Shown here piece after piece: positions 23,120-61,727 of a DNA stretch of 64,000 bases. The DNA is from Oscillospiraceae bacterium (lineage in GTDB: Bacteria; Bacillota; Clostridia; Oscillospirales; CAG-272). The notes beneath the pieces were generated by a model. It saw only the letters and a program-made list of their open reading frames with translations, had not been told where the DNA came from and ran no database searches. A program made the translations under genes and the position numbers. The stretch lies in the NCBI GenBank assembly GCA_015064255.1, contig SVSP01000001.1, forward strand, positions 203,951 through 267,950, written 5' to 3'. Numbering within the stretch: position 1 is the stretch's first letter; every line of letters begins with the position of its first letter.

Positions 23120-24196
23120 TTATTTCAGCTTTTTGTCTGCGAAGCGGATGTAAGCATTCCAGTCTGTACGGCTGAGGAAGTGCGCACCTGCGCGGAGATG
23201 GTAAGCGATGTTACCGCCGTCAAGGTTGGAACCAAGCTCTGGAAGAGGAGCATCCTCGGGATAAATAAGACCGTGAATACCGAGACGCTCATAAATCTTG
23301 CTTGCGGCACGGCAGCATTCAAGCTCGGATGCGGGATAAGCCCAAAGGTCTTCGTCTGCGCTTCCGACAGCAACGGGACGCGGTGCGATAGCGCCTACGA
23401 GGAAGTGCTGGTCGCAGGGAAGTGCCTCTTCGTTGTCTATGTACTTGGAATAGTTCTTGCAGAACCAGAAGGGGAATCTGTTATAGATTATGTTAATGTT
23501 TTCAGCCTTGTCAAACTGAGCGTTCATTCTGGAGAGTGCGTCACCGGAGCATCCTGCGTTGTTCGAGCAAGCCATAGCAAAACGGGAATCCTGTGCAACA
23601 GTCCAAAGGGCTGTCTTTCCGAGACGGGAGTGTCCGATAACGATTACCTTTTCCTTGTCGATCTCGTCGAGTGTTTCAAGATAGTCCATAACTCGGCTGA
23701 GAGCGAAAGCCCACATAGATATCTTGCCCCAACCGTTGTCGGGACGGTTTTCAGCAGAGTACATACCTGCAAGACCGTTTGTCATATCGTTGTTGTCAGA
23801 AGTAATGTCCTGATAATAAACGCGGGCACAAGCATAACCTGCGTCAACAACTTCTTCCTGAGGATAATATTTGTCGGGAAGATTAGGACTGAAGTTTATC
23901 AGAAGAAATACAGCGGGTTTTTCAACGTGCTTCGGTATAGTAAGTACAACGGGGAAGGTGAAAACTCCGCCGGGTGTGTCAAAAGAGATGTTTACGCTTC
24001 TCTGAATAGCCTTGTTTGCAAGAACGCTTTCTTCGGAAACCACCTGTGCAGTAACCTTGTCGGGAGCTTTCGGAGAAAATCCGTAAACGTTTTCGCGGAG
24101 AATATCGAGTATTTCCTGTCTGCGGTTTTCCCACGCATCAAGAGAAACAGGACCGTTTCCTTCATATATTTCGGGGAGTTTAAAATTTACAGCCAT
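23120..24196 (-). CDS. CE15-like glucuronoyl esterase (alpha/beta hydrolase)
   Basis: 'IGHSRLGKTALW' resembles the G-x-S-R-x-G nucleophile motif of CE15. No signal peptide. Start at ATG 24196 (RBS AAAGGA). Confidence 0.55.
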   Translation of the reverse strand: MAVNFKLPEIYEGNGPVSLDAWENRRQEILDILRENVYGFSPKAPDKVTAQVVSEESVLANKAIQRSVNISFDTPGGVFTFPVVLTIPKHVEKPAVFLLINFSPNLPDKYYPQEEVVDAGYACARVYYQDITSDNNDMTNGLAGMYSAENRPDNGWGKISMWAFALSRVMDYLETLDEIDKEKVIVIGHSRLGKTALWTVAQDSRFAMACSNNAGCSGDALSRMNAQFDKAENINIIYNRFPFWFCKNYSKYIDNEEALPCDQHFLVGAIAPRPVAVGSADEDLWAYPASELECCRAASKIYERLGIHGLIYPEDAPLPELGSNLDGGNIAYHLRAGAHFLSRTDWNAYIRFADKKLK

Positions 24197-24250
24197 AATT
24201 TTTATTCCTTTCAGCTTGTAAGATTTTATTTTACAAGAAGATAATAACAC

Positions 24251-24306: not shown

Positions 24307-27300
24307 TTAAGCGAAAAGTGCCTTGTAAGCGTGAATTTCAAATGCGTAAGGAGATATTTCCTCGGCGAGCGAAATATATTTGTCGGCTTCTTCGCAGTTT
24401 CCGTTTGCACGGAGTGCGAATGCTTTGAGAATATATCCGCTGAGCAGATTGTTCTTCACGATATTGTTTTCAAAAGGCATCGGAGAGGGTGATCCTACTC
24501 CGTAATAGGTACGAAGATCGTTGTTTTTGATGCGGTCGTCGGCAACGGCGATCATTTCTGACGTAACATCGTCTGCTTCATTGTTTCTGCCGAGCTTTCT
24601 GAGTGCAAGCGCGCGGAAAGCGGAAAGCTCGGAAACTGCCGCTTTGTATATGGCAGCTTCTTCAAAAGCTTTAAGCGCATCGTCGTTTCTGCCAAGCTTT
24701 TCAAGCATATTACCAAGATAGAAATAGATGTGTGCCTCCTGATTGAAGAACGTCTTCGCTTCTCCGTAGCTCTTCGGGACGATAGTAGCACGTCTGAAAT
24801 AATCTTCAGCTTCATCCGTACGGCCTGCATTTTCAAGTGTGAGCGCATAGAGAAGGAACATCCAGGAGTGTTGCTTGGTAAGACGTCCCTCACCGCCCTC
24901 GTAAATGTGGAAACGTTTGCTTGCGGCGAGGTCAATCGACTCCTTGTAGCAGCCCTTGAGAGTGAGAAGGATCACTTTGTCAAGATAGCAGTCGTCGCGC
25001 TTTTCAAAGAGCTCGGGATATTTTTCGTAAACGTCAAGACGCTCATCGGGGGTGGCATTTGAGTTTTTGAGCAGCTGTTGATATTCCATAAGCATTCTCG
25101 GCGAAGTCTTTTTGGTATCAAGTGCGGTCTTCATACAGAGTTTTGCTTTTTCAATATCTCCGCGCTTGTCAAAATATGCAAGTGCGAGATTTCTGTAAGC
25201 TTCTGCTTTTTCGGGATTAATAGCAACACATCTTTCCCAAGCTGAAACAGCGTCGTCATAGCGCTCCTTGTGATAGAAAAGACATCCGAGATAATAGCTT
25301 GCGTTGGATGCGTTTTTGTAAGCGGAGATCGCATATTCAAGTACGGTAATGTCGCTGATTCTGTTAGGGAAGCAGTATCCGTGATGGCAGGCTTCTGCTT
25401 TCGTTATTTCGTATATGCTGTCCTTGCCCATAAGCGAAAGCGTATAAGCGCGGTAGTAGGATACGAGAGGATAGTCCTGCGGTGCAAAATCAAGCGAATA
25501 AAGTGCATCCTCGTAAAGTCCTTCCGAAATATAATCACAAGCAATATCTATGATATTTTCTGCTTTTTCGGCGAAATAAGCAATTTTATCGCTCATATTT
25601 TCAAAATGTGAAAGCTCGAAAATTGCACGGAGATCAAGTGTGTCATATAAGCGGAATTCTTCTGCTACAGCCTTTGCTTTGTCGGCTTTGCCGAGCTTGC
25701 GGAGAATGGCAGCCTTAAGTCCGCCTGCGCGGGAATTGTGCTTTCCGAGAGAAAGCACGACCTCTGTTTTTTCAAGAGCATCTGCGTATCTGCCTTCCGC
25801 ACAGTCGAGCGATGCAAGCTCAAAATATGCCGCTGCACGGTGGCTGTAATTCCAACCTGCACGGAAAAGTGTATCGTAAGCCTCGGAGCTTCTGCCGAGT
25901 TCTTTGAGTGCAAGTCCCTTTAAGTAGAACGCTTCTGTGTCGGTAGGGTGCTGATTTCTCGATGTAAGGCGCTCGATAGCTTTGCCTGCATATTCGATGC
26001 ACTTTTCAAATTCACCCTTGCGGTATGAAAGGCGAGCCATAGAAGTGTTGCATCTGATATCACCGGGATCGCGGGCAAGTCCTTCAAGATAGTAATCCTC
26101 GGGTCTGTAATTATGCTGCTTGTACTGCTCGAGATGATAACCGTTGATGTAAAGCTCTTCAACAGTTGCGATCTCACAGGGGCGCGCAACAGGCTTTCTT
26201 ACTTCGATAGGCTGCTTCTGACCTCTTACGTAAGGCGTATATGAAACGAGCGTCTTTCCTTCGCAGGATACAAGCGAAACTGTAATATCGTTTATGTCTG
26301 AATCGCACGCGGAAATAGTTTTTGTATATGCCTTGTCGGGTGTAAGACTTGCATTTTCGCTGTATATTACGCTGTTTTTATCTTTTACGGTGATTGCTGC
26401 GTTTTCAAAACAGCCCGTTACGTTAAATCCGATAAATATTTCGTTGCCGCGCTTTTCAAGATTTACAGCGGCGTCTATCGTAGCATTTTTCACGTCACCG
26501 ATGTCGCGGATAGGATACCAGTACTGCTCAAATTCGCGGCTCTCGTAAGGAGCGAGCCACGTAAAGTCGGGCTGATTGTCGGTATAAACACCTGTCATAA
26601 GCTCGATGTACGGACCGTTTTTGTCGGTGAGGTTGGAGCACCACATATCTCCGAAATCACCGATACCCCAATGCCAGAGCTTCTTACCGGGGGAAATGTG
26701 GTGATCGGCAACAGTAACGATACCTTTGTTTATTCCTTCGTCGTATCCCGCAACGAAGTCCATATCGGACTGTCCTTGCGAAATGAGGAAAGAAGAGGGA
26801 ACCTTTACTGAGTCGTAACGTGAAATATCAGTACCTTCACCGTAATTAAAGGGACGTGCGGTCTTATACAGACCTTTTGCAACAGGCCAAGAGAGTACGG
26901 CGCGTCTGTCGTGGTCGTTTACCCATTCAACGTCGGGCGGGAATATAGTGCGGTAATCTTTGTTTGCAGGTGCGGCAAGGTTTGCCCACCACATAAATGT
27001 CTGAGGAAGATTCGTGCGGTTATATACCTTTATTTTGGCCTTTATGAAGCTTCTACCGGGGCATACCGTGATACCTGCCATACCCTTCATTCTGTTCATA
27101 GGCTCAACCTCGCCTACCCATACGGTCTTGCTTCCGTCGGGTGCTTCCTCGACAGAGGCTTCAAGCGGCATATACGTTGTGGGGCGGTGATGCTGAGGCC
27201 AGTTGAATTCGATTCCACCCGATATCCAAGGACCGGCAAGACCTACAAGTGCGGGCTTTATAACCTCGTTGTAGTAAATGAAATCGTAGCTTCCGACCTT

Positions 27301-27552
27301 GTCGTATCCGCGGAGTATCTTTCCGCCGATCTCGGGAAGTATATCTGTTTTAACGTATTCGTTTTCAAGAGTATAGACGTCGTATTTTACATCCTCGCAG
27401 GTATCGGAAACCGAATCGGAATAGGGAATAGGATAAACCTTTCCGCTTGCACCCTGATAAGGGCGGTTTTCGAAGAACATAGGAAGCTCTTCTGCTTTTC
27501 CGGGAACATACGTGGGTATAATTCTTTTTTCTTTATTAAGTATGACCTTCAT
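24307..27552 (-). CDS. DUF5107-like N-terminal domain fused to a long TPR array (1081 aa)
   Basis: N-terminal ~350 aa contain the conserved 'SGGIEFNWPQHHRP' block shared with the paralog at 39251. The remainder is TPR-like repeats. No signal peptide. Confidence 0.55.
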   Translation of the reverse strand: MKVILNKEKRIIPTYVPGKAEELPMFFENRPYQGASGKVYPIPYSDSVSDTCEDVKYDVYTLENEYVKTDILPEIGGKILRGYDKVGSYDFIYYNEVIKPALVGLAGPWISGGIEFNWPQHHRPTTYMPLEASVEEAPDGSKTVWVGEVEPMNRMKGMAGITVCPGRSFIKAKIKVYNRTNLPQTFMWWANLAAPANKDYRTIFPPDVEWVNDHDRRAVLSWPVAKGLYKTARPFNYGEGTDISRYDSVKVPSSFLISQGQSDMDFVAGYDEGINKGIVTVADHHISPGKKLWHWGIGDFGDMWCSNLTDKNGPYIELMTGVYTDNQPDFTWLAPYESREFEQYWYPIRDIGDVKNATIDAAVNLEKRGNEIFIGFNVTGCFENAAITVKDKNSVIYSENASLTPDKAYTKTISACDSDINDITVSLVSCEGKTLVSYTPYVRGQKQPIEVRKPVARPCEIATVEELYINGYHLEQYKQHNYRPEDYYLEGLARDPGDIRCNTSMARLSYRKGEFEKCIEYAGKAIERLTSRNQHPTDTEAFYLKGLALKELGRSSEAYDTLFRAGWNYSHRAAAYFELASLDCAEGRYADALEKTEVVLSLGKHNSRAGGLKAAILRKLGKADKAKAVAEEFRLYDTLDLRAIFELSHFENMSDKIAYFAEKAENIIDIACDYISEGLYEDALYSLDFAPQDYPLVSYYRAYTLSLMGKDSIYEITKAEACHHGYCFPNRISDITVLEYAISAYKNASNASYYLGCLFYHKERYDDAVSAWERCVAINPEKAEAYRNLALAYFDKRGDIEKAKLCMKTALDTKKTSPRMLMEYQQLLKNSNATPDERLDVYEKYPELFEKRDDCYLDKVILLTLKGCYKESIDLAASKRFHIYEGGEGRLTKQHSWMFLLYALTLENAGRTDEAEDYFRRATIVPKSYGEAKTFFNQEAHIYFYLGNMLEKLGRNDDALKAFEEAAIYKAAVSELSAFRALALRKLGRNNEADDVTSEMIAVADDRIKNNDLRTYYGVGSPSPMPFENNIVKNNLLSGYILKAFALRANGNCEEADKYISLAEEISPYAFEIHAYKALFA

Positions 27553-36903: not shown

Positions 36904-36958
36904 AATTTGACCGTGAAAGCGGCAATTTATAAAAGAAAAAATCAAAGGAGATTTGATT

Positions 36959-37993
36959 ATGAACACATCGGAAGTAAAATATTTTTCTTGGAAAGACGGC
37001 ACACAGGTGACTGTAAATAACGGAAGCGGATATCCCAGACTTTTCAAACTCAAGGACGGACGTCTTGCCTGCGCATTTGATGGTATGTACGTAAAATTCA
37101 GCTCGGATGACGGCCTCACCTGGTCGGATGCGGTAGCGGCAAGTAAATTTCCCGAATACGAAGGACTATTCTGCGCAAACGCAGCACTCTGGCAGCTTGA
37201 TGACGGGGAAATTTTCCTCGCATACCGTGCAAACGGAAGAAAATCGACTACAAAAAACGGTGAACATTATACATCTATTCAGGTGAGCGCAAGTAAGGAC
37301 AACGGAAAAACTTGGTATCACCATTCGACAGTTTACGAGCACTCGGGAAAGGGCGGAGTTTATGAGCCTCATTTTGAGCTTATGGACGGAAAAGTTACCG
37401 TTTTTTATGCTAACGATACGGAAGAGGTAAACGTCCTTCCTTATCAGTACATCGAATATAAGCAGTGGATAAACGGTGAGTGGACAAACCGCACGGTGGT
37501 TTGCGACGGCGGAAAGCATAAATCAAGAGACGGTATGCCCGTATGGCTTCAGCTTCGCGACGGAACTTACGCTTGTATAATCGAAGCCTGGAATACAAGC
37601 GGCAACGGACATATGATGATAAAGCTCGTTACCTCCAAAGACGGAAAAGAATGGTCGGAGCCTGTTGATATCTACACCTCAAAGAAGGGTAAGGCAGGCG
37701 CGCCCTATCTTGCAGAGCTTCCGAGCGGTCAGCTTATGGTTGCTTTCCAGACAGACGAGGATATGACGACCGAGGGCGATATGTATTCGGCGATGAAGAC
37801 GATAATCTCCGACCTCACACCTGCCGATAAGCTTACTGCGGCAAACTTCAGTGAGCCCGATATGCCGTTTGAAACACCCGACGGATATCACAGCATATGG
37901 AACGGACTTTACGTAAGCGGAAACTACGTTTATGCTATCACGGGAACGAACTATCCGAGCGGACAGATAAGACTTAACAGATATGAATGGTAA
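36959..37993 (+). CDS. BNR/Asp-box six-bladed beta-propeller, sialidase-like glycosidase (copy 1)
   Basis: Asp-boxes 'SSDDGLTWS', 'SKDNGKTWY' and 'SKDGKEWS'. No signal peptide. Start at ATG 36959, 8 nt after AAAGGAG. Confidence 0.65.
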   Translation: MNTSEVKYFSWKDGTQVTVNNGSGYPRLFKLKDGRLACAFDGMYVKFSSDDGLTWSDAVAASKFPEYEGLFCANAALWQLDDGEIFLAYRANGRKSTTKNGEHYTSIQVSASKDNGKTWYHHSTVYEHSGKGGVYEPHFELMDGKVTVFYANDTEEVNVLPYQYIEYKQWINGEWTNRTVVCDGGKHKSRDGMPVWLQLRDGTYACIIEAWNTSGNGHMMIKLVTSKDGKEWSEPVDIYTSKKGKAGAPYLAELPSGQLMVAFQTDEDMTTEGDMYSAMKTIISDLTPADKLTAANFSEPDMPFETPDGYHSIWNGLYVSGNYVYAITGTNYPSGQIRLNRYEW

Positions 37994-38017
37994 GGTATCT
38001 TTTTAGAGGTAGTATTA

Positions 38018-39061
38018 ATGAAAACAAAGCATTTTTCTTGGAATGACGGAATACAGACCGTTGTAAATAACGATAAAGGCTATCCGCGTCTGCTTAAGTT
38101 ATCCGACGGTCGTCTTGCCTGTGCATTTGACGGTATGTTCGTGAAATTCAGCTCGGATGACGGTCTTACTTGGTCGGATGCCGTAGCGGCAAGTAATTTT
38201 GCCGAATACGAGGGACTCGTGTGCGCAAATGCTGCACTTTGGCAGCTTGAGAACGGCGAGATACTTCTCGCATACCGCGCAAACGGTAAAAAAACGGGAA
38301 CTCCCGATGGCTCGTACTATTCGTCGATACAGGTAAGTGCAAGTAAGGATAACGGAGAAACCTGGTATCACCATTCGACGATCTATGAAAATCTTGAGCT
38401 GTCGGGCGCATACAAGGGCGTCTGGGAGCCTCATTTCGGTATGCTGAACGGAGTTCTTACCTGCTTTTACGCAAATGACTCAACGAATTTGATCACGACC
38501 TATCAGTATATCGAATATAAGCAGTGGATAAACGGTGAGTGGATAAACCGTACCGTTGTCTGCGACGGTGAAAAGCATAAATCAAGAGACGGTATGCCCG
38601 TATGGCAGCAGCTTCGCGACGGTACTTACGTTTGCATAATAGAAGGCTGGAATACTGCGGGTAACGGAAAAATGATGATAAAGCTCGTTACCTCAATGGA
38701 CGGAATAAAGTGGTCTGAGCCTGTCGATATTTACGTTCCCAAAAAGGGAGTTGCGGGAGCACCGTATATAGCAGAGCTTCCAAACGGACAGCTTATGGTT
38801 GCTTTTCAGACGGACGAGGATATGACAAAGGGGGCGGGAGCGCGTTTTGCCTCGATGAAGACGATAATATCAGACTTTACGCCCGCGTGTGAGCTTACAG
38901 CGGAAAATTTCAGCGAGCCCGAAATGCCCTTTGAAACACCCGACGGATATCACAGCAACTGGAATGGACTTTACGTCAGCGGAAATTACGTTTACGCGGT
39001 TACGACCACAGACTATCCCGAGCGTCAGATAAGACTTAACAGATATAAATTTGAAGAATAA
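38018..39061 (+). CDS. BNR/Asp-box sialidase-like glycosidase (copy 2, tandem paralog)
   Basis: Collinear with copy 1 over its whole length ('SSDDGLTWS', 'SKDNGETWY', 'SMDGIKWS'). Long stretches of near-identical DNA. Confidence 0.65.
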   Translation: MKTKHFSWNDGIQTVVNNDKGYPRLLKLSDGRLACAFDGMFVKFSSDDGLTWSDAVAASNFAEYEGLVCANAALWQLENGEILLAYRANGKKTGTPDGSYYSSIQVSASKDNGETWYHHSTIYENLELSGAYKGVWEPHFGMLNGVLTCFYANDSTNLITTYQYIEYKQWINGEWINRTVVCDGEKHKSRDGMPVWQQLRDGTYVCIIEGWNTAGNGKMMIKLVTSMDGIKWSEPVDIYVPKKGVAGAPYIAELPNGQLMVAFQTDEDMTKGAGARFASMKTIISDFTPACELTAENFSEPEMPFETPDGYHSNWNGLYVSGNYVYAVTTTDYPERQIRLNRYKFEE

Positions 39062-39250: not shown

Positions 39251-42200
39251 ATGGTAAACTGCAAAGAAATCAAGATGACTATACCGACCTACTGCGAAGC
39301 GCCCTATGAAGAGCTTCCGATATACGCAGAGGGAAGAACTCATCAGCGTACGGCAGGAAATCCCTATCCGAATAAGGTCATAATACACACCTATGACAGA
39401 GAAAAAAAGGACGTTGAATATAATGCGATAGTTCTCGAAAACGAATATATCGAGCTTATAATTCTCCCCGAGCTCGGCGGAAGAATTTTCTCGGCATACG
39501 ATAAGAGAACAGACTACTATTTCTTCTACCGTCAGCACGTTATTAAGCCCGCACTTATAGGCGATCTCGGATCGTGGATATCGGGCGGAATAGAATTCAA
39601 CTTTCCTTTCCATCACAGACCGTCAACCTTTATGCCTGTCGATTATTCGATCGAAGAAACTGAAAGCGGCGGAAAGATCGTATGGATGAGCGAGCACGAT
39701 CCCTTTGACCGACTTAAAGGTATGGTAGGAATATGCCTCGAACCCGGTCAGGCATATTTTGAAACAAGAATGAAGGTCTATAATCGCACACCGCTTCGCA
39801 GAACGTTCCTTTGGTGGGAAAACACCGCAGTTCCGGTAAATCCGCAGTATGAGATATTCTTCCCGGAGGACGTTGATCACGTGTGGTTCCATTACCGCGA
39901 TTCGGTTACGGGATTCCCTATGGCAAGCGGAAGCTTCAACGGATATCTTTACGGTGACGGAACGGATATAAGTAAGCACTTTAACACAAAGCACGCGACA
40001 TCTTACTTTGCGGCGGCATCTGAATACGATTATTTCGGAGGTTATGATAACGGAAAAGAGTGTGGCGTAGTTCATATCGGCGACGCGTATATTTCTCCCG
40101 GTAAAAAGATGTTTACATGGGGATACGAACAGCTCTCGCGCTCTTGGGAAAGAGCACTCACAGACGAGGACGGCGCATATGCCGAGCTTATGGCAGGCTC
40201 GTATTCTGACAATCAGCCCGACTTTGCGTGGATAGAGCCTTATGAAACAAAGAATTTCTCACAGTGCTGGTATCCTATAACAAAGATAGGCGTTCCTGAT
40301 TTTGCAAACCTTAAAGTGGCGTATTCGATAAAGGACTCAAAGCTCTATATTCAGCCGACAGTCAGCGAAAATGACGTTAAGATCAGCGTAAGCGACGCAA
40401 AGGGAAACAAATTCGAAGCAACGGTAGATCTTTCTCCCGATAACGTGACAATTCTTGAAATAGGCGATTTCGATAAATTCGGAAGCCGCGTAGTGATAGG
40501 CGATCTTATTTCGCATTGTCGCGAAAAGACAGAGCAGAGAGAACTTCCCGAGCTTGCAGTTAAAAAGCCGACTCCCGATGCGATAGACGATCCCTATACT
40601 CTCGTTCAGACGGCAGTTCATCTTACACAGTACCGCGATCCGATCGCAGATCCCGCGAAATACTGCCTCAGAGCACTTGAAATAAGGCCGAATTATGCTC
40701 CCGCACTTGAGTTTCTCGGAGAGCTTGCTCTGCGTAAAAACGAGTTTGCAGAGGCGGCAGACTATTTCGAAAAGGCACTTAAGGAAAAATACCGCTATAA
40801 CAGACACGCAGAAAGCGGACGTACAGAATATCTTATCGGATATGCTTACGAAATGCTCGGTGAGCTTGATAAGGCTTATTCGCACTACAGATTCTCGGCG
40901 TGGAATGCAGATACCTTTGCCTGTGCTATGACGCGTGCGGCGGCTGTATCGCTGAAGTCGGGCAATCTTGACAGAGCAGAGAAATTCTCGCTTGAAGCAA
41001 TCGAGCGCGGAGTTGAAAACTCGTACGCTATGCTCGTTCTTGCAGCGACAAACATTAAGCTTGGCAGAAATGAACTTGCCGCAGAGGTTCTTTGGGCAGT
41101 TGACGATTACGATAAGCTCTATCACAGCGCAAGATATCTGCTTATGCTTATAGGTGAGATAGAAGAGAGCGAATTCTATACGGCGCTTCACTCCTCTCCG
41201 TCGCAGACCTGCCTCGACATATACGAAGACCTTACGGCAGCAGGACTTGACGAGGAAGCGAAAGCACTTCTTGAAAAGCTTCCCGAATACACAAAGGATA
41301 TTGCGCCGACAGTCGCATACCTTATAGGAAAGGGCGAGCTTCTCAGCCGCGAACACAGGACCTTCCCGTTCAGAGATATTGACAGAAAGGTGCTTCTTGC
41401 CGAGGACGCAAAAGGAAACACCTACGCATCGTATCTTTACGGTTGTCAGCTCTTCTCGACACAAAAATACGATGAAGCGGCAACATATTTTGCAAAATAC
41501 GACGGCTACGAGGGCAAGCGTAATCTCGCGGTATATTATTACCGAAAGAAGGATTACGATAAGTGCCTTGAAAATCTTGAGGCGGCACTTGAGAAGAATC
41601 CGAGAAACGAACAGCTCGTATTCGAAAAGGCGTACGTAAGAAATCATATCGGATATGACTACAGAGAAACAGCAGAGTTCATACTTGCAAATATAGATTC
41701 TATTGAAAAAACAAGAGATGATATCTGCGCGGAGCTTGCGGGCGCATACAGTTCGTGCGGTGAATATGAAAAGGCACTTGACGTACTGTCAAAGCACGTG
41801 TTTATCGTCTGCGAGGGCGGTGAGACCTTCTACGCAGGAAAATATATAAGCGCGTGGGCAGGTATCGGTGAAAAGCTTGCCGCAGAGGGTAAATATAAAG
41901 AAGCCGCAGAAGCATTTGCGAAAGCGCAGGTCATTCCAGAAAATATAGGCGCGGGAATATGGCATATCGGTGTTCTTGTACCCGTTAAATACCGTCAGGC
42001 AGAATGTCTTGAAAAAATCGGTGAGAATGATATTCCGAATGAGGTATATGACCTTATAGACAGCATACATATAGACTTCTTCTCGGATAAATATCTCCCC
42101 GAGCTTGCATATTATAAGGCCATGGCTAAATATAAGAGGGGCGATAGATCGGGCGCGCTCGAAATACTCGAAGCGTTCGAAGAGAAGATAAACGACGGAC

Positions 42201-42337
42201 TTTCTCATACGGATAGCGGATGGTTTGCGGCGTATGCGTTGCTTATATCCTATCCCGATCTTGCAGTCGATGCAAGAAAGAATTATTACGGCAGACTTGC
42301 ATCTCTTTGTAAGGATGCACGCAAAAGGATAAACTAA
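39251..42337 (+). CDS. DUF5107-like N-terminal domain plus TPR array (1028 aa), paralog of 24307..27552
   Basis: 'SGGIEFNFPFHHRP', 'VLENEYIELIILPELGGRI' and 'YNRTPLRRTFLWWEN' align with the other copy. C-terminal TPR-like repeats. Confidence 0.55.
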   Translation: MVNCKEIKMTIPTYCEAPYEELPIYAEGRTHQRTAGNPYPNKVIIHTYDREKKDVEYNAIVLENEYIELIILPELGGRIFSAYDKRTDYYFFYRQHVIKPALIGDLGSWISGGIEFNFPFHHRPSTFMPVDYSIEETESGGKIVWMSEHDPFDRLKGMVGICLEPGQAYFETRMKVYNRTPLRRTFLWWENTAVPVNPQYEIFFPEDVDHVWFHYRDSVTGFPMASGSFNGYLYGDGTDISKHFNTKHATSYFAAASEYDYFGGYDNGKECGVVHIGDAYISPGKKMFTWGYEQLSRSWERALTDEDGAYAELMAGSYSDNQPDFAWIEPYETKNFSQCWYPITKIGVPDFANLKVAYSIKDSKLYIQPTVSENDVKISVSDAKGNKFEATVDLSPDNVTILEIGDFDKFGSRVVIGDLISHCREKTEQRELPELAVKKPTPDAIDDPYTLVQTAVHLTQYRDPIADPAKYCLRALEIRPNYAPALEFLGELALRKNEFAEAADYFEKALKEKYRYNRHAESGRTEYLIGYAYEMLGELDKAYSHYRFSAWNADTFACAMTRAAAVSLKSGNLDRAEKFSLEAIERGVENSYAMLVLAATNIKLGRNELAAEVLWAVDDYDKLYHSARYLLMLIGEIEESEFYTALHSSPSQTCLDIYEDLTAAGLDEEAKALLEKLPEYTKDIAPTVAYLIGKGELLSREHRTFPFRDIDRKVLLAEDAKGNTYASYLYGCQLFSTQKYDEAATYFAKYDGYEGKRNLAVYYYRKKDYDKCLENLEAALEKNPRNEQLVFEKAYVRNHIGYDYRETAEFILANIDSIEKTRDDICAELAGAYSSCGEYEKALDVLSKHVFIVCEGGETFYAGKYISAWAGIGEKLAAEGKYKEAAEAFAKAQVIPENIGAGIWHIGVLVPVKYRQAECLEKIGENDIPNEVYDLIDSIHIDFFSDKYLPELAYYKAMAKYKRGDRSGALEILEAFEEKINDGLSHTDSGWFAAYALLISYPDLAVDARKNYYGRLASLCKDARKRIN

Positions 42338-49663: not shown

Positions 49664-49734
49664 TGGGGAATTGTGTAACGGTAGCACAGCAGACTCTGAC
49701 TCTGTATGTTGGGGTTCGAATCCCTATTCCCCAG
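49664..49734 (+). tRNA. tRNA-Gln (anticodon CUG)
   Basis: Hand-folded cloverleaf: acceptor TGGGGAA/TTCCCCA, D-arm GTGT/GCAC, anticodon arm GCAGA-CTCTGAC-TCTGT, 4-nt variable loop, T-arm TGGGG-TTCGAAT-CCCTA, discriminator G. No encoded CCA. Confidence 0.85.
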
Positions 49735-55314: not shown

Positions 55315-56079
55315 TTATTTGCATTTTTTGTATTCTCTGTACTTTCTCGGAGAAACAGAAAAATTCTTTTTGAAGCAACGGCTGAAATAAAACGGATCGT
55401 CAAAACCGCATCGCTCGCTTATTTGTGATATTTGAAGATCGGTTTCGCTGAGCAGATCGCGTGCGAGCTCAAGACGCAGATTTGTGATGTACTGAAGAGG
55501 CGTAGTACCCGTAATATTGCGGAAATTTTGCAGAAATACGCTCTTTTTTATGCCAACACGCTCGAGCATATCGTTCAGAGTATATTCTCGGCAGGGATCT
55601 TCGTGAATGTATTCAAGGATTTTGCGGATCCGCATAACGCTTATCGGCTCGGTGTTCGTGTGAAGCCTTGTAAGATGCTCGCATATTATCTGCTGGAGTA
55701 TGATATTCAGCTTCCATCTGCGCAGATAATTGTTTTGCAGATATTCATCGTTCAGACGCTTGAAAAGAATATCGGCAAAGTGATGGTCTTCAAGATGTAC
55801 GTGTTCGGGAATATCGTCGATTATTTCATCACTTTCGCAGGTGAAATGTACTCCGTAAAGCACCATGTAGGGCTTTCGGGTGATCCATAGACTGTGCTTT
55901 ACGCCCGGTCTGAAAAATATCATATCTCCGGCACTTACCTGAATGTGTTTTTCTTCGATCGTGATGTCGCCGTAACCGCTTGCTATATATACTATCTCGT
56001 ACTCATTTATATATCTCGGAGCGATCTTCCATCCGTCAAAAGTGCTTCGGCGTATCATATGCTTTATTTGTACGTCCAA
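55315..56079 (-). CDS. AraC-family transcriptional regulator
   Basis: Cupin-like N-domain and C-terminal 'ISQISERCGFDDPFYFSRCFKK' HTH. Divergent from the URO-D-like gene. Confidence 0.8.
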   Translation of the reverse strand: MDVQIKHMIRRSTFDGWKIAPRYINEYEIVYIASGYGDITIEEKHIQVSAGDMIFFRPGVKHSLWITRKPYMVLYGVHFTCESDEIIDDIPEHVHLEDHHFADILFKRLNDEYLQNNYLRRWKLNIILQQIICEHLTRLHTNTEPISVMRIRKILEYIHEDPCREYTLNDMLERVGIKKSVFLQNFRNITGTTPLQYITNLRLELARDLLSETDLQISQISERCGFDDPFYFSRCFKKNFSVSPRKYREYKKCK

Positions 56080-56213: not shown

Positions 56214-57329
56214 ATGATTTGGAACAGAGAACAGTATATTGCTCACTGTAATTTTGAATTTACGGGCAGAGAATTTTTCTGTGAGCTTTTCGGACCGCTT
56301 ATCGGACTTGACGACGAGTGGAGAGCACAGGGCGCAAGCGAAAAAGAAATTGCTATGACCGCGTTTGATTGGGACTACGTTAAATATACGTGGCTTGCTG
56401 CGGGCGCGGGCGCAGTAACGGGACTGAGCCCTGTGATACTTGAGGATACTCCCGAATATACCATATCGGTAGACCGTATGGGACGTAAGCAGAAGCTTAT
56501 TAAAAAGAGTGCGACAATACCGCTTCCCGTATCTTTCCCCGTAGAAACGATGGATGATTGGCTTAAAATCAAGCATTGGTACACATTCGATGAGTCGAGA
56601 ATCAGTTATGAAAAGCTGAAATACCAAAAAGAGCTTCGTGATAAAGGTTGTCTTACACTTTGGGGAATTCCGGGAGGATTTGATGAGCCGAGAGAGCTTA
56701 TGGGCGAAGAAAATCTGTGTATCGCATACTACGAAGAGCCCGAGCTTATCAAGGATATGCTTGATACTTTCACCGATACCGCAATTAAGATCATTGAACG
56801 TATCTGCGAGATAGTACCGATAGATAATCTTTCTATCCACGAGGATATGGCAGGAAAATCGGGACCTCTTGCGGGACCGCTTCAGATAAAAGAGTTTATG
56901 CAGCCTTATTACAACAAGGTATGGGACTGCGCAAAGTCATACGGCGCAAAGATCTTTTCGCAGGACAGCGACGGCGATATGACTCCGGTAATCGATGCAT
57001 TTCTCGATTGCGGAATAAACTGCTTCTATCCGCTTGAGCCTGCGGCAGGAATGGATATGGTAGAGCTTCGTAAGAAATACGGTAAACAGTTCTGCTGTAA
57101 AGGCGGAATAGATAAGCACGTGCTTCGCCGCAGTAAAGAAGAAATACGCGCAGAACTTGAATATAAGATGTCAGAGCCTATGCGCGGCGGAGGTACGATA
57201 TTTGCACTTGACCACCGTATTCCCAACGGAGTACCGATCGAAAATTACCGTTACTACGTAAACTACGGAAGAGAACTTCTCGGATTGCCCCCGATCAGCG
57301 AAGAGGGATGGGCAAGAATGGCGTTTTAA
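56214..57329 (+). CDS. Uroporphyrinogen-decarboxylase (URO-D) superfamily protein of unknown substrate
   Basis: 371 aa TIM-barrel-like protein with the pattern 'LSIHEDMAGKSGPL ... SQDSDGD ... FYPLEP ... FALDHRIPNG', typical of non-heme URO-D/MtaA-like paralogs. Confidence 0.55.
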   Translation: MIWNREQYIAHCNFEFTGREFFCELFGPLIGLDDEWRAQGASEKEIAMTAFDWDYVKYTWLAAGAGAVTGLSPVILEDTPEYTISVDRMGRKQKLIKKSATIPLPVSFPVETMDDWLKIKHWYTFDESRISYEKLKYQKELRDKGCLTLWGIPGGFDEPRELMGEENLCIAYYEEPELIKDMLDTFTDTAIKIIERICEIVPIDNLSIHEDMAGKSGPLAGPLQIKEFMQPYYNKVWDCAKSYGAKIFSQDSDGDMTPVIDAFLDCGINCFYPLEPAAGMDMVELRKKYGKQFCCKGGIDKHVLRRSKEEIRAELEYKMSEPMRGGGTIFALDHRIPNGVPIENYRYYVNYGRELLGLPPISEEGWARMAF

Positions 57330-57350
57330 TTTCGCCTGATTATTTTGATA

Positions 57351-57386
57351 AAAGCTCTTACAGCAGACAGCTGTAGGAGCTTTTTT
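57351..57386 (+). terminator. Strong intrinsic terminator between the URO-D-like gene and the GRE activase
   Basis: AAAGCTCTTACAGC-agaca-GCTGTAGGAGCTTT followed by TTTTTT. Confidence 0.8.
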
Positions 57387-57399
57387 GTATTGACGTATA

Positions 57400-57428
57400 T
57401 TGACATCGCTGATGAATGATGATATAAT
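57400..57428 (+). promoter_or_regulatory. Consensus sigma-A promoter of the activase-GRE operon
   Basis: TTGACA, 17 nt spacer, TATAAT, 31 nt upstream of the ATG at 57459. Confidence 0.7.
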
Positions 57429-57458
57429 TTCGGTAGAGATTGTATTTGCGGTGAGGTG

Positions 57459-58292
57459 ATGACCTTGAAGGGTACTGTTTTTGATATACAGCGTTTTTCG
57501 GTGCACGACGGTCCGGGAATAAGGACTACTGTCTTTATGAAGGGATGTCCGCTTCGCTGCAGATGGTGTCATAACCCCGAAGGACTTTGCAGAGGGCTTC
57601 AGCTTCAGTTTTTTGAAGAAAAATGTATAGGATGCCGCAGATGCGGAAAGCGTGAAACTCTCGCTGATGCGGAAAAATGTCCTGCAGAAGCGCTCAAGGT
57701 CTGCGGAAGAGAAATATATGAAGATGAAATCATAAGCGAGATATTGAAGGACCGCATATTTTACGGAGAAAATGGCGGAGTCACATTTTCGGGCGGAGAA
57801 TGTCTTCTTCAAGCTGATTTTGTTGCATCTGTGCTGAAAAAAGTAAAATCACTCGGACTTCATACGGCAGTAGATACGTCGGGATGCGTAGCGTGGAGCG
57901 AAATCGGAAAAACGCTTGATTTTTGCGACCTTTATCTGTATGACGTGAAATGTATAGACTCTTCGGTGCATAAAGAATATACGGGCGCAGATAACTCTCT
58001 TATCCTTGAAAATCTGAAAAAGCTGTCAGATACGGGAAAAGATATATGGATTCGTGTGCCCGTGATTCCCGATTTTAATAACAGCGTCGGAGAAATGACA
58101 AATATAGCCGACCTTGTAAAAGAACTGACATCGGTAAGCCAAGTGACACTTATGCCGTATCATACACTCGGAGCAAGTAAATACAGAACGCTCGGTATGA
58201 AATATCGGTACGATGCTTCAAAAAAAATATCAGCCGAGGAGCTTGAAGCATATCGAAAAATATTTATTGACAGAAATCTTGCCTTGACATAA
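57459..58292 (+). CDS. Glycyl-radical enzyme activating protein (radical SAM)
   Basis: 'FSVHDGPGIRTTVFMKGCPLRCRWCHNPE' (CxxxCxxC) plus one ferredoxin-like insert 'CIGCRRCGK...KCP'. Confidence 0.85.
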   Translation: MTLKGTVFDIQRFSVHDGPGIRTTVFMKGCPLRCRWCHNPEGLCRGLQLQFFEEKCIGCRRCGKRETLADAEKCPAEALKVCGREIYEDEIISEILKDRIFYGENGGVTFSGGECLLQADFVASVLKKVKSLGLHTAVDTSGCVAWSEIGKTLDFCDLYLYDVKCIDSSVHKEYTGADNSLILENLKKLSDTGKDIWIRVPVIPDFNNSVGEMTNIADLVKELTSVSQVTLMPYHTLGASKYRTLGMKYRYDASKKISAEELEAYRKIFIDRNLALT

Positions 58293-58307
58293 CTGAGGAG
58301 GTTTAAA

Positions 58308-60500
58308 ATGACGAGAACAGAATTTTTAAGAGAACAGACCGTTTCGGGCGCAAACAAATGCAGAAGAACGCCATATACGCATATGTCCGTGGCTGATGAA
58401 AATTGCGGAATTGTCGAAAGAAAGGCACTTGCTCTGAAAAAGCTTTTTGACAATATGCCGGTATATATAGGTCCAAAAGAGCTTATAGTCGGAACAAGAA
58501 CGCTTTTTCCCGCAAATCGCGGAAACGAAGACGGTCACAGCTGCTTTGAGTACGGACTCGGCACACCTGTTGAATATATAAACAGTCAGGATATTGAGCT
58601 TTTCGGATGTAATCAGAGCTACAGAAATAAAACTCATTTCGCTCCCGATTTTTCTATAATACTCGATAAGGGTATTGACGGCATTATAAACGAGGCAAAT
58701 GAAAAGAAAAAAGAAGAAGGACTCAATTACGTAAATGTTGATTTTCTCTCGGGTGTCGCTGTTGCTTACAGCGGACTTAAGGGACTTATTCTCAAGTATG
58801 AAAAAGAAGCGCTTTCTCTTGCGGAAAAAGCGGACGGCGATGATAAAGCCGAGCTTCTTGAAATAGCGAGAATTTGCGGGAAAATAAGCGGAGAGAAGCC
58901 CGAAAGCTTTCGTGAAGCCGTTCAGCTTCTTTGGTTTACGCATCTCGGAACGATAATAGAAAGCTTTGAGTTTATAAACTACGGCAGGCTTGACGTTATT
59001 CTCGGTAAATTCCTTGGAGATACAGACAGGGAAGAGGCACAGCAGATAATAGAATGTCTGCTTCTTAAGATGTATGACCAGGCTGATCTTGTTGCTACGT
59101 ATCTTAAAAACTACGCCGCACAGCTTGTAGTTACACTCGGAGGCGTTTTGCCAAACGGTGAAAATGCGGTAAACGAAGTTACGATGATCTTCCTCGAAGC
59201 AATAAAAAAAGTTCACCTTCCCGAGCCTGAATTCAATTTGCGTATAAACAGTAAAAATCCGCCCGAATTTCTCGATAAAGCCTCAGAAGTTTCTCTTTCG
59301 GGATGCAACCACGTGTCGTATTATAATGATGATATGTTCATTGAAAGTATGTGCATAGCAGGTGTTGCGCCGGAATATGCGCGCGACTACGGATTTGATC
59401 TTTGTCAGGATATGAATATACCGGGAAAGAGCGATTTCTATCTTATAGGAAGTACGTCGCTTGCATATCTGCTTATGGATTTTCTTAAAGCCAAACGCAA
59501 TTTTGACAGCTTTGAAGATCTTCTTGCGGAATACAAAGCAAAAATGGCAGAGCATATCGCTTTTGTGATAAACAGATATAATGATGCAGAGGCACATCTT
59601 GCACTTTACGCCGAAGGAAAGTTTGACGAGTATTTTGACGGCATAAAAAATCACGGAAAGCCTGTTGATTGCGGAGGAAGAAGTCCGATGGCACCGCTTC
59701 CACTTATCAGCGTACTCTATGAAGGCTGTATGGAAAAGGCACTCGACCTAAATCTTGATCCGCTTCCGATAACGGAAAAAGGATATATGCTCGGCACTCC
59801 GACAGAAGCAATAAACTCGCTTGCGGCAATAAAGAAGACCGTTTTTGACGATAAACGCTATACTCTTGATGAAATATTTACCGCTTGCGAATCAAATTTC
59901 GATGGCGAGAACGGTGAGATCATAAAAAATGTTCTTCGCTCCTGCCCTAAATGGGGTAACGACGATGATTACGTTGACAGCATCGCAAAGGATATTCTTG
60001 AGTTCGGTCTCAGAGAATGTGATAAATATAAGACTTCAAAAGGCGGTCAGGTGCTTGGAGGAATACATCAGCCTCACCCCGTTTCAACCGGTTGGGGACT
60101 TATGGCAACTCCGGACGGAAGACCAAGCGGTGCTCCCGTTGCGGTGACTCTTACTCCGGCAAGCGGAACTATGAAGAACGGACCGACGGCGGCACTTGCA
60201 TCGGCATCGAAGATAGACCCGATGCTCGTTAAATGGAATTACTGCGTAATGGTAAATTATTTCGCTTCGGTATTCAAGGGAAATAACGGAAAGGAAATAT
60301 TCAAAACACTTCTGAGAGGATATTTCAAAGCGGGCGGACTTCAGCATCAGCCGAACATTTCGGACGTTGAGGAACTTAAAAAAGCACAGCTTGAGCCCGA
60401 AAAATATAAAGACCTTATCGTTCGTCTTTGGGGCGTTTCGGCTCACTTTGTAGATCTTTCAAAAGAATTACAGGACGAAATGATAGCAAGATTTGCCTGA
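58308..60500 (+). CDS. Glycyl-radical enzyme (PFL2/dehydratase-like clade), substrate unknown
   Basis: C-terminal glycyl motif 'IVRLWGVSAHF' (Gly709, nt 60432-60434), 'ATPDGRPSGAP' block, and Cys loop 'ARDYGFDLCQDMNIPGK' (Cys366, nt 59403-59405). Confidence 0.85.
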   Translation: MTRTEFLREQTVSGANKCRRTPYTHMSVADENCGIVERKALALKKLFDNMPVYIGPKELIVGTRTLFPANRGNEDGHSCFEYGLGTPVEYINSQDIELFGCNQSYRNKTHFAPDFSIILDKGIDGIINEANEKKKEEGLNYVNVDFLSGVAVAYSGLKGLILKYEKEALSLAEKADGDDKAELLEIARICGKISGEKPESFREAVQLLWFTHLGTIIESFEFINYGRLDVILGKFLGDTDREEAQQIIECLLLKMYDQADLVATYLKNYAAQLVVTLGGVLPNGENAVNEVTMIFLEAIKKVHLPEPEFNLRINSKNPPEFLDKASEVSLSGCNHVSYYNDDMFIESMCIAGVAPEYARDYGFDLCQDMNIPGKSDFYLIGSTSLAYLLMDFLKAKRNFDSFEDLLAEYKAKMAEHIAFVINRYNDAEAHLALYAEGKFDEYFDGIKNHGKPVDCGGRSPMAPLPLISVLYEGCMEKALDLNLDPLPITEKGYMLGTPTEAINSLAAIKKTVFDDKRYTLDEIFTACESNFDGENGEIIKNVLRSCPKWGNDDDYVDSIAKDILEFGLRECDKYKTSKGGQVLGGIHQPHPVSTGWGLMATPDGRPSGAPVAVTLTPASGTMKNGPTAALASASKIDPMLVKWNYCVMVNYFASVFKGNNGKEIFKTLLRGYFKAGGLQHQPNISDVEELKKAQLEPEKYKDLIVRLWGVSAHFVDLSKELQDEMIARFA

Positions 60501-60525
60501 GTGAAATACGGTTGTAAATAAAACT

Positions 60526-60554
60526 AAAGGATGAGATTTTTCTCATCCTTTTTC
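60526..60554 (+). terminator. Intrinsic terminator of the GRE operon
   Basis: AAAGGATGAGA-ttttt-CTCATCCTTT followed by TTC. Confidence 0.8.
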
Positions 60555-60668: not shown

Positions 60669-61727
60669 ATGGAAAAAATATTTGACATTACAAAGTTCGG
60701 TGCGGTTGGTGACGGAGTCTTCGACTCGACCGAGGCAATACAAAACGCTCTCGATGAAGCTTCAAAATGTATGGGTAGCGTTATCGTGCCTCCGGGAAAA
60801 TATATGGTTTCAAAGCTTAAAATGTACGGTCAGGGAGTCTCTCTCGTCGGAACTTCGGCGTGGAGCTTCAGAAGCGACGGAGCAAGTGTGCTTCTCCTTA
60901 ATGACAAAAACGTTGACTGCCTTATCGATATCAGCGGTGCTTTTGGGTGCAGTATAAAAGGAATATGCCTTGATGGAAGAAATCTCGGCAATAATATTCA
61001 CGGTATAAAGCTTTATTGGGATAAATACAATGGCGGCTCGGAAGAGGATACTCCTACGGTCGATGATTGCCGAATAGGTAGCTTTTCGGGTGACGGTCTT
61101 CATTTTGAGCACGTTTGGTGCTTTTCTGTCAGACATTCAATGATCCATAGAAATGGCGGAGCAGGTCTGTATATAGACGGCTGGGATGCGTTTGTCCTCG
61201 ACAATTGGTTTACGGCAAATAAAAACGGCGGAATTATGGGTGGTCCGGTAGTTGCCTCTGTTACTTGTACGGGAAATCGCGTTGAATGGAACCGTCGCGG
61301 CGGCTTTATTCTTCCGAGCGGTGATAGCTATAATATTACAGGTAATTTCTTTGACAGAAGCTTCGGACCTGCACTTGAACTCGGAAGTGAAAATAAAAAG
61401 GTGCATACCGTTGCCGTAACAGGCAATATATTCAGAAGAAGCGGTGCACTTGCAGACGGGGAATCTTTTGAAGAAGCTTGCCACAGCTCACACGTTTATA
61501 TGAGAAACTGTATCGGAACGGTCGTGAGTGCAAATACTATGCGTGTCGGACGCAACGATAACGGCAAGGGCGTGGAAAGTCCCGATTACAGCTTCATAAT
61601 AGAAAACTGTGAAAACTGCGTTATAAAGGATAATACTATGTACTACGGTGCGCTTGCACAGAATATCGTTCTGCGCGGTAATAACGAGTCGTGCGTTATA
61701 TCAGATAATATAGGAAACGTGAAATAA
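60669..61727 (+). CDS. Right-handed parallel beta-helix protein (pectate-lyase-3/GH28-related fold)
   Basis: N-terminal 'ITKFGAVGDGVFDSTEAIQNALDEA' and repeated 'G..I..N' coil pattern. No signal peptide. Confidence 0.6.
   Translation: MEKIFDITKFGAVGDGVFDSTEAIQNALDEASKCMGSVIVPPGKYMVSKLKMYGQGVSLVGTSAWSFRSDGASVLLLNDKNVDCLIDISGAFGCSIKGICLDGRNLGNNIHGIKLYWDKYNGGSEEDTPTVDDCRIGSFSGDGLHFEHVWCFSVRHSMIHRNGGAGLYIDGWDAFVLDNWFTANKNGGIMGGPVVASVTCTGNRVEWNRRGGFILPSGDSYNITGNFFDRSFGPALELGSENKKVHTVAVTGNIFRRSGALADGESFEEACHSSHVYMRNCIGTVVSANTMRVGRNDNGKGVESPDYSFIIENCENCVIKDNTMYYGALAQNIVLRGNNESCVISDNIGNVK

Follow-up and report, generated by a model that had tools for sequence, protein, structure and literature searches.

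What does a glycyl radical enzyme (GRE) do when both of the loops that carry its radical depart from the family pattern? The question is raised by two co-oriented open reading frames (ORFs) in a 64,000-nucleotide stretch of DNA from an Oscillospiraceae bacterium (CAG-272; GenBank assembly GCA_015064255.1, contig SVSP01000001.1, positions 203,951 to 267,950 of the forward strand), which we refer to as the window. One ORF (57456-58292, +, 278 aa) encodes a putative GRE-activating radical S-adenosylmethionine (radical-SAM) enzyme, and the other, after a spacing of 16 nt (58308-60500, +, 730 aa), encodes a PFL-like GRE. We tentatively propose, at somewhat less than even chances, that the two form a functional, separately transcribed activase-GRE pair of an uncharacterised clade, and that the GRE would be a radical 1,2-dehydratase converting a sugar or polyol into a 2-deoxy-aldose, which would then be phosphorylated and cleaved.

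A GRE with remodelled radical loops

The 730-aa protein matches the Pfam models PFL-like (PF02901, 341 bits) and Gly_radical (PF01228, 65 bits). Its AlphaFold2 model (pLDDT 93.2, pTM 0.93) has the ten-stranded GRE barrel with the Cys and Gly finger loops, and the top 50 Foldseek matches listed for that model are all GREs. Solved GREs fit it to a similar degree (TM 0.75–0.82, 20–28% identity), with glycerol dehydratase the best. At 730 aa it is shorter than the usual ~780–850 aa.

The Cys loop (59400-59411, +) reads L365-C366-Q367-D368. In HMMER alignments to glycerol dehydratase (1r8w), CutC and HypD, which have no gaps across the loop, the query ARDYGFDLCQDMNIPGK falls on ARDYGIIGCVEPQKPGK and its equivalents, with ARDYG and PGK as the anchors on either side. 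These alignments imply that the thiyl-radical Cys is kept as Cys366 (aligned with C433 of glycerol dehydratase), that the preceding Gly has become Leu365 and that the catalytic Glu, the general base, has become Asp368; Gln367 between them is specific to the clade described below. The loop holds a single Cys and lacks the Cys-Cys pair of the PFL type.

The Gly loop, RLWGVSAHF (60423-60449, +), carries the radical site Gly709. Relative to the published fingerprint RVxG[FWY], two fixed positions differ (V to L, and the aromatic residue to V), and the x position, mostly Ala or Ser in other GREs, is Trp708. Gly709 itself is present, which sets the protein apart from aminoacyl radical enzymes, in which this Gly is replaced by Ala, Ser or Thr. 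Elsewhere among the GRE homologues, P0171, P0202, P0215 and P0261 have Thr or Ala at the radical site (RVATY, RVSTW, RVAAY) and match these recently described enzymes.

Roles of further active-site residues were assigned from sequence alignments only. His110 (58635-58637, +) aligns with His164 of glycerol dehydratase, the proposed general acid on the first barrel strand of GRE eliminases. His587-Gln588 (60066-60071, +) stand in place of the aromatic plus Ser/Thr pair of other GREs and, going by relatives, would sit on an active-site-lining strand of the barrel. At 60234-60239 (+) follow Trp643, inserted as a single extra residue, and Asn644, which is Gly in other GREs.

A first-pass annotation of the window had described a GRE that is shorter than most, with a Cys loop in which the Cys is kept, Gly becomes Leu, Glu becomes Asp and no Cys-Cys pair remains, and the alignments and a check of the translation agree with it on each count. 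It had allowed that a canonical GCxE might have been misaligned; three independent gap-free HMMER alignments, anchored on both sides, exclude this. The C-terminus that it called unmistakable is indeed homologous, with Gly709 kept, but is not canonical, given the two departures from the fingerprint and the Trp at x.

A CQD clade outside the characterised families

The unusual loop is shared by a large group of proteins. Close relatives alone make up at least 120 clusters at 90% identity; the 120 best homologues listed (60–91% identity, nearly all 727–738 aa) all have C-Q-D or a very close variant, and 117 of the 120 have R[LM]WG[VI]S..F. Their main sources are uncultured Clostridia, Oscillospiraceae and Eubacteriales that live in the guts of ruminants and other animals, and NCBI names clade members 'hypothetical protein'. 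A broader survey at 50% identity, which drew on 1.84 billion cluster representatives, returned about 13 full-length x-C-Q-D clusters, every one of them with R-x-W-G; the residue before the Cys is L, V, A, W or Q, and in no case G. In a neighbour-joining tree the CQD sequences grouped together in 98 of 100 bootstraps, the degenerate member P0139 included, and P0140 (ACQD) was placed outside the clade. As judged from these motifs, the clade is defined by an x-C-Q-D Cys loop together with an R-[LMV]-W-G Gly loop. P0139 (734 aa) has lost both its Cys-loop and its Gly motif, with YYKNQ where others have RLWGV, and is probably a non-radical paralogue or the product of a pseudogene.

Gly709, Cys366 and His110 are invariant in the clade. 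Fourteen further positions are invariant within it and rare elsewhere: T65, Y90, Q367, D368, G437, W549, L583, H587, Q588, V613, P638, W643, N644 and W708. Several of these are polar (Q367, D368, H587, Q588 and N644), and none is Arg or Lys.

The window enzyme misses all NCBIfam GRE equivalog models, by a factor of 2 to 14. In bits against the cut-off of each curated model, it reaches 349 of 678 for TIGR01774, 297 of 1100 for HypD, 280 of 1109 for PflD (PRK09983), 269 of 1050 for CutC, 263 of 1000 for HpsG, 237 of 1000 for HpfG, 206 of 1100 for IAD, 181 of 1150 for HPAD and 69 of 994 for PFL (TIGR01255). We therefore ruled out membership in a characterised GRE clade, as the first-pass annotation had supposed, on these scores, on PDB identities (28% at best) and on the neighbour-joining tree; because the tree took in homologues and not characterised GREs, placement relative to known families rests on the scores and the PDB identities.

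The residues agree with this placement outside known families. In GRE 1,2-eliminases (glycerol dehydratase, propanediol dehydratase, HypD, HpfG, CutC, IslA/IseG and HpsG), the Glu of a CXE motif forms a hydrogen bond to the substrate hydroxyl and deprotonates it; CXE is kept by all six C-O eliminases, CutC, the C-S lyases and three isomerases, and a CXD variant is never mentioned (June-2026 review). The window enzyme has C-Q-D, with Asp368 in place of that Glu, and keeps the general acid as His110. Its single Cys and its PFL score separate it from the formate-lyases (PFL, TdcE), and CQD rather than CXE, with the PflD score, separates it from the isomerases YbiW, PflD and HplG. The same review notes that entire GRE clades remain unassigned.

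A cognate activase with a reduced ferredoxin-like insert

The upstream protein, 278 aa from a GTG start (277 aa in the public gene call, which starts one codon later), scores 316 bits against the NCBIfam GRE-activase model TIGR02494, well above its cut-off of 174, in keeping with the first-pass view that it is the cognate activase. Its radical-SAM cluster motif, CPLRCRWC (CX3CX2C; C31, C35 and C38; 57546-57569, +), is invariant across relatives, and the activase adjoins the GRE in 18 of 21 loci. Together with the GRE homology, this supports a bona fide GRE with its cognate activase, as far as sequence can tell.

The activase insert is shortened (CIGCRRCG-x11-CP-x7-C; 57624-57704, +). It keeps C57, C60, C63 and C75-Pro (Cx2Cx2C...CP) as well as C83, has the second Cys set deleted, and is ~20 residues shorter than the eight-Cys inserts of more distant relatives (L021, L024, L088 and L095). 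The four retained insert Cys could ligate one [4Fe-4S] cluster. The first-pass annotation had counted one auxiliary-cluster-like motif, and four of the usual eight ferredoxin-domain Cys, plus C83, are what the comparison finds. The reduced insert, in place of the eight-Cys form, is conserved in 14 core-family activases. By contrast, GRE activases are described as carrying either eight extra Cys or none, and the purpose of the ferredoxin domain is listed as unknown (June-2026 review).

In a pattern scan, the cassette is preceded by a sigma-70-type promoter, TTGACA-17-TATAAT, that matches the consensus at 12 of 12 positions and has an extended -10 TG (57400-57428, +). Similar near-consensus promoters lie 5' of the activase in the relatives L001, L002, L005, L020 and L024. 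An intrinsic-terminator-like hairpin with a 15-bp stem and a T run (57350-57384, +) ends the upstream URO-D-like gene, and a bidirectional terminator-like hairpin with an 11-bp stem and a T run (60526-60551, +) ends the cassette. With its own promoter and flanking terminators, the activase-GRE pair looks like a separate bicistronic unit. An Rfam scan of the window matched a tRNA and nothing else, with no riboswitch or other known RNA upstream of the cassette; the tRNA gene lies at 49664-49734 (+), where the other strand has an overlapping, spurious ORF of 140 aa.

A kinase and DERA-type aldolase accompany some orthologues

The first-pass annotation had called the GRE an orphan. This does not hold for its orthologues, some of which stand in operons with a deoxyribose-phosphate aldolase (DERA)-type aldolase, an FGGY kinase and an Fe-alcohol dehydrogenase (Fe-ADH). 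We found the module genes by tblastn with the proteins of a Spirochaetota locus. In L007, whose GRE is 70% identical to the window enzyme, the order is gntR, DERA-like aldolase, FGGY kinase, activase and GRE; L014 (64%) has gntR, DERA, kinase, Fe-ADH, activase and GRE, and L175 (66%, gap-free) has DERA, kinase, Fe-ADH, activase and GRE. The genes in these three loci overlap or stand at most ~45 nt apart. In L013/L174 (66%), a module of gntR, DERA, kinase and Fe-ADH lies 11.5 kb upstream on the same contig and in the same orientation.

The module recurs in a sister subclade (GLCQD), for which identity, taken from L021, is 43%. L087 has activase, XylF-like binding protein, ATPase, permease, GRE, kinase and DERA, and L088 has gntR on the opposite strand, binding protein, ATPase, permease, activase, GRE and kinase. 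In L021 (GRE 43%), the GRE lies within an xylFGH-like operon with a periplasmic-binding-protein sensor, a histidine kinase, an AraC-type regulator, an XylB-type kinase and a putative SIS-type isomerase. Gene order differs between the two subclades, and the module is orthologous in both: kinases are 43–59%, aldolases 58–61% and GntR proteins 37–53% identical.

The families of these proteins point toward sugar metabolism. In the PDB the aldolase matches deoxyribose-phosphate aldolases only (best E = 4e-39), the catalytic Lys motifs of DERA can be read from the alignment, and members of its cluster bear that name at NCBI. Four more aldolase clusters have a longest contig of equal length to that of a GRE cluster, a hint of further co-located cases. 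The kinase is nearest to xylulokinase but under the cut-off (316–340 versus 380 bits), the binding protein scores 367 bits against an XylF cut-off of 504 and 50 bits against RhaS, and the Fe-ADH has weak similarity to lactaldehyde reductase (124 bits).

Several related loci are of interest in their own right. A decayed copy of the cassette occurs in the cultured Merdimmobilis hominis An559 (L026, 7163-13306), with GntR, a 107-aa DERA remnant, an intact FGGY kinase and the C-terminal 339 aa of the GRE (61% identity over the remnant), which lacks the Cys loop; there is no activase, and an alpha-L-fucosidase follows. Two Spirochaetota loci (L045, 8487-21911, and L113) encode an 801-aa GRE with GCVE and RVAGYSAFF that matched no characterised family, along with a Zn-ADH, an activase, a ribose-type ABC importer, an OYE reductase, a DeoC that passes TIGR00126 and an FGGY kinase 48% identical to the CQD-linked kinase. 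Because this canonical GRE stands with an orthologous kinase and DeoC, the GRE-kinase-DERA arrangement seems to have arisen more than once. In L090 (2305-18885), a CQD GRE that shares 48% identity with the enzyme of L021 is part of a long run of genes on one strand, among them an apiosidase-like glycosidase, a sulfatase, a GFO/IDH/MocA oxidoreductase, a xylose-isomerase-like TIM-barrel protein and an OYE reductase, a carbohydrate context unlike kinase/DERA. In L095 (385-13148), from a Sumerlaeia metagenome-assembled genome, four GRE paralogues (768, 745, 820 and 774 aa) share one locus and are followed by just one activase gene; an opposite-strand 782-aa ORF splits one of them from the other three, which are consecutive.

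Proposed function and its alternatives

The kinase, DERA and Fe-ADH in the orthologous operons suggest that the GRE makes a deoxy-sugar. By homology, the activase, with its radical-SAM cluster and a single auxiliary cluster, would install the radical on Gly709, from which it would be relayed to Cys366. Judging by the motifs, the substrate would be a neutral sugar or polyol, or its phosphate, and the Cys366 thiyl would take a carbinol hydrogen from it; Asp368 would deprotonate the hydroxyl at that carbon, His110 would protonate the neighbouring hydroxyl, water would leave and Cys366 would give the hydrogen atom back, a 1,2-elimination like that of glycerol dehydratase that would yield a 2-deoxy-aldose. 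The scheme follows the current glycerol dehydratase mechanism (June-2026 review). Subsequent steps are modelled on the gene context of the orthologues rather than of the window: the xylulokinase-like FGGY kinase would phosphorylate the product (or, alternatively, the substrate beforehand), the DERA-type aldolase would release acetaldehyde and a triose or aldose phosphate, and the Fe-ADH would reduce the aldehyde. A polyol entering such a route would ferment with balanced redox. A pentitol, a hexitol or a xylose-like sugar is a possible substrate; a neutral ligand about the size of xylose would suit both the polar, uncharged residues specific to the clade and the XylF-like binding protein. Pairing of a GRE dehydratase with an Fe-ADH is established for glycerol and propanediol dehydratases (June-2026 review).

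A number of observations weigh against this proposal. The 64-kb window contains no kinase or DERA homologue, and its cassette, like that of most core-family loci, has only unrelated genes around it; when 104 neighbouring proteins were pooled for a Pfam scan, they yielded 141 families, none of them in more than four loci. The L021 GRE has a different, XylB-type kinase and an SIS-type isomerase, the latter judged by eye from its translated N-terminus, and no DERA was seen at that locus. XylF-like binding proteins usually bind pyranoses, not polyols. An Asp is one methylene shorter than a Glu and, with a residue other than Gly before the Cys, may serve a different chemistry, and all known GRE dehydratases use CXE (June-2026 review).

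If the enzyme belongs to another reaction class altogether, as a decarboxylase, a C-C lyase or the catalyst of a new radical reaction, the kinase/DERA linkage would be mechanistically uninformative for the window orthologue. The remodelling of both radical loops and of at least 14 positions would suit such a departure, as would a mostly autonomous cassette whose promoter is strong, as in two-gene decarboxylase or PFL cassettes, and whose neighbours are often housekeeping genes (DNA ligase, GlgB, tRNA synthetases). We nevertheless consider it unlikely, if worth serious attention, because the kinase/DERA module is conserved in two subclades despite its rearranged order, the Cys-Cys pair is absent and the dehydratase His110 is kept. 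HPAD-type decarboxylases have a small-subunit gene, and none was seen beside the GRE in the loci examined. More conventionally, the enzyme might be a microcompartment-free variant of propanediol dehydratase that closes a fucose- or rhamnose-like route, in which the kinase and aldolase yield lactaldehyde or glycolaldehyde, the Fe-ADH reduces it to 1,2-propanediol or ethylene glycol and the GRE dehydrates the diol. This arrangement mirrors the established logic of FucK, FucA and FucO with propanediol dehydratase; the Fe-ADH is weakly lactaldehyde-reductase-like, the cassettes of the window, L003, L018, L020 and L026 have a fucosidase or rhamnosidase gene nearby, and glycerol and propanediol dehydratases are the closest matches in structure, with His110 conserved. 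The aldolase, however, is of the acetaldehyde-donor DERA type, not a dihydroxyacetone-phosphate-dependent fuculose- or rhamnulose-phosphate aldolase; the operons contain no sugar isomerase; and the binding protein resembles XylF rather than RhaS. The GCVE loop and pocket residues of the dehydratases are also replaced (by alignment, S282 to F222, D447 to I380 and Y to H587; we take S282 and D447 of glycerol dehydratase to be substrate-binding), identity to these enzymes is 26–28%, and shell and aldehyde-dehydrogenase genes are lacking. We judge this small-diol route improbable.

A redox-neutral, ring-opening isomerase in the manner of YbiW, PflD and HplG, which would turn an unphosphorylated 1,5-anhydro-alditol type of substrate into a 1-deoxy-ketose for the kinase and aldolase, seems to us slightly more improbable again. 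The XylF-like binding protein suggests a pyranose-shaped ligand, E. coli xylulokinase phosphorylates 1-deoxy-xylulose, and GFO/IDH/MocA oxidoreductase genes lie near some members (in L090, and two genes downstream in L085/L086). GRE isomerases acting on sugar derivatives do exist and pass their products to an aldolase (June-2026 review), but the known ones keep CXE, the PflD model is missed by a wide margin, a DERA-type aldolase is unexpected for a 1-deoxy-ketose phosphate, and anhydro-pentitols of this sort are not known to be available in the rumen. A reaction on a rare plant-wall sugar in which something else than water leaves, such as methanol from the 2-O-methyl-xylose or 2-O-methyl-fucose of rhamnogalacturonan II (RG-II), is a long shot. 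GRE eliminases do cleave C-N and C-S bonds through the same ketyl mechanism (June-2026 review), and pectin/RG-II-type glycosidases recur nearby (GH78, GH29, GH106, apiosidase-like, arabinopyranosidase-like and beta-helix proteins); the argument is one of context only, in genomes that are glycosidase-rich throughout, with no neighbour family enriched, and the product would be no obvious DERA substrate. That the GRE is a catalytically dead relic might be read from its broken canonical fingerprints, from the name 'hypothetical protein' and from the decayed copies in L026 and P0139, which has neither motif. Yet Gly709, Cys366 and the activase CX3CX2C are invariant in more than 120 clusters at 60–91% identity, the ORFs are full-length and gap-free, and the cassette has a dedicated promoter and terminator; such strong conservation makes a relic very unlikely, to the point of being hardly credible.

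The 2-deoxy-aldose-forming dehydratase is the reading that we prefer. A bolder version of it would make the CQD clade a new GRE functional class, in which a Cys/Asp dyad, with Gln367, His110 and His587, converts a free sugar or sugar alcohol into a 2-deoxy-aldose at the head of a GRE-kinase-DERA-Fe-ADH fermentation route found widely among Clostridia of ruminant and animal guts and served by an activase with one auxiliary cluster. We regard this full version as possible but rather doubtful.

Genomic neighbourhood of the cassette

The first-pass annotation had looked to the surrounding genes for a clue and proposed a substrate derived from a deoxy-sugar. By Pfam, the neighbours of the cassette include, as it said, rhamnosidase, fucosidase and URO-D-like genes; an AraC gene is there too, and no shell-protein or aldehyde-dehydrogenase gene lies within 10 kb, also as it said. 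The neighbours are not conserved with the cassette, so the inference drawn from them fails: across ~19 species-level loci, only the activase-GRE pair itself is conserved. The neighbourhood survey of relatives that the annotation recommended showed that the local genes are not shared and found the kinase/DERA module in some orthologues instead. A role in sugar metabolism remains plausible, but the orthologues suggest an enzyme that makes a deoxy-sugar, not one that consumes a fucose- or rhamnose-derived one.

We rejected fucosidase and rhamnosidase as conserved partners, each being present in ~3 of 19 loci with no family enriched by clustering or in the pooled Pfam scan; many cassettes adjoin housekeeping genes instead (DNA ligase, GlgB, adenine deaminase and tRNA synthetases). 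The URO-D-like gene was rejected as well. It lies beside the cassette only in the closest relatives (L085 and L086), the AraC/URO-D pair occurs independently elsewhere, and the terminator and separate promoter between the URO-D-like gene and the cassette set the two apart. The AraC-type regulator (55315-56079, -), divergent from the 371-aa URO-D-like gene (56214-57329, +), forms with it a module of their own, and the AraC gene has a consensus promoter (12 of 12) at 56140-56112. Homologues of the URO-D-like protein number more than 3,600, and the nearest of them are 67–91% identical to it. In other Clostridia the pair is found without a CQD GRE, in one case next to a canonical PFL and in another next to a corrinoid methyltransferase set.

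Directly downstream of the cassette, the window encodes a pectate-lyase-like beta-helix protein (60669-61727, +), and a weakly similar one lies downstream in L017 (12226-13362). The plant-glycan enzymes of the window include a CE15-like glucuronyl esterase (23120-24250), two BNR_2 proteins (36953-39061), the GH78 rhamnosidase and the GH29 fucosidase. Two large paralogous DUF5107 plus TPR proteins are encoded at 24307-27552 (-, 1081 aa) and 39251-42337 (+, 1028 aa).

Significance

GREs carry out chemically hard anaerobic reactions, and newly assigned clades have revealed pathways for choline, hydroxyproline, isethionate and anhydro-sugars. Judged by sequence, the CQD clade is widespread and uncharacterised; both of its radical loops are remodelled, its activase is reduced, and it departs from the CXE motif so far kept by all eliminases and isomerases. 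Literature searches on GREs with similarity networks, anhydroglucitol, sugar alcohols, DERA or FGGY found no description of it. Through its conserved association with a kinase, DERA-type aldolase and alcohol dehydrogenase, an unassigned GRE becomes the basis of a concrete pathway hypothesis, with the coupling enzymes supplied. In addition, the activase with a single auxiliary cluster is a natural minimal variant that could help to settle the role of the ferredoxin domain in GRE activases. If the dehydratase reading is true, it would describe a hitherto unknown, redox-balanced 'radical deoxy-sugar' fermentation in animal-gut anaerobes. An enzymatic route to 2-deoxy-aldoses would also be of interest for biocatalysis, where DERA chemistry is already in industrial use.

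Comparison with known systems

The closest characterised enzymes are the B12-independent glycerol dehydratase of Clostridium butyricum (1R8W/1R9D) and the propanediol dehydratase of Roseburia inulinivorans (5I2G), the best matches by sequence and fold (E = 6e-89, TM 0.82). The window GRE shares with them the barrel, the Cys and Gly finger loops, the His164 equivalent and a dedicated radical-SAM activase, and some orthologous CQD operons also share the Fe-ADH partner. It differs in that GCVE has become [L/A/V]CQD and RVAGY has become RLWGV, in being ~55 residues shorter and in reaching half the TIGR01774 cut-off; microcompartment and CoA-acylating aldehyde-dehydrogenase genes are absent, and the partners are a kinase and DERA. 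YbiW and PflD, which open the ring of 1,5-anhydrohexitol-6-phosphate in 'anhydroglycolysis', likewise act on sugar derivatives and feed an aldolase, and they match in fold (TM 0.80–0.82). Unlike the window GRE, to which they are 22–24% identical, they keep CXE and take substrates phosphorylated by the phosphotransferase system.

Uncharacterised systems offer two further comparisons. The GRE of Spirochaetota and other anaerobes (the L045/L113 type) is paired with an orthologous FGGY kinase, DeoC, a sugar ABC importer and an OYE reductase, but it is an 801-aa enzyme with GCVE and RVAGY loops that passes TIGR01774 and is only ~29% identical to the window GRE. Nearest outside the clade, at 31–36% identity, are the 'W-G' GREs of Bathyarchaeia and other archaea and bacteria (GC[Q/S/T/W]E with RVWGFSAYF), together with the Archaeoglobus fulgidus PFL2 structure (2F3O); beyond these mostly archaeal enzymes lie the canonical GCVE/RVAGY GREs. 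The 'W-G' enzymes keep the Gly before the Cys and the Glu base, have other neighbourhoods and stand apart in the neighbour-joining tree, whereas they share with the CQD clade the Trp before the radical Gly, a length of ~700–750 aa and sometimes the Gln after the Cys, and are uncharacterised likewise.

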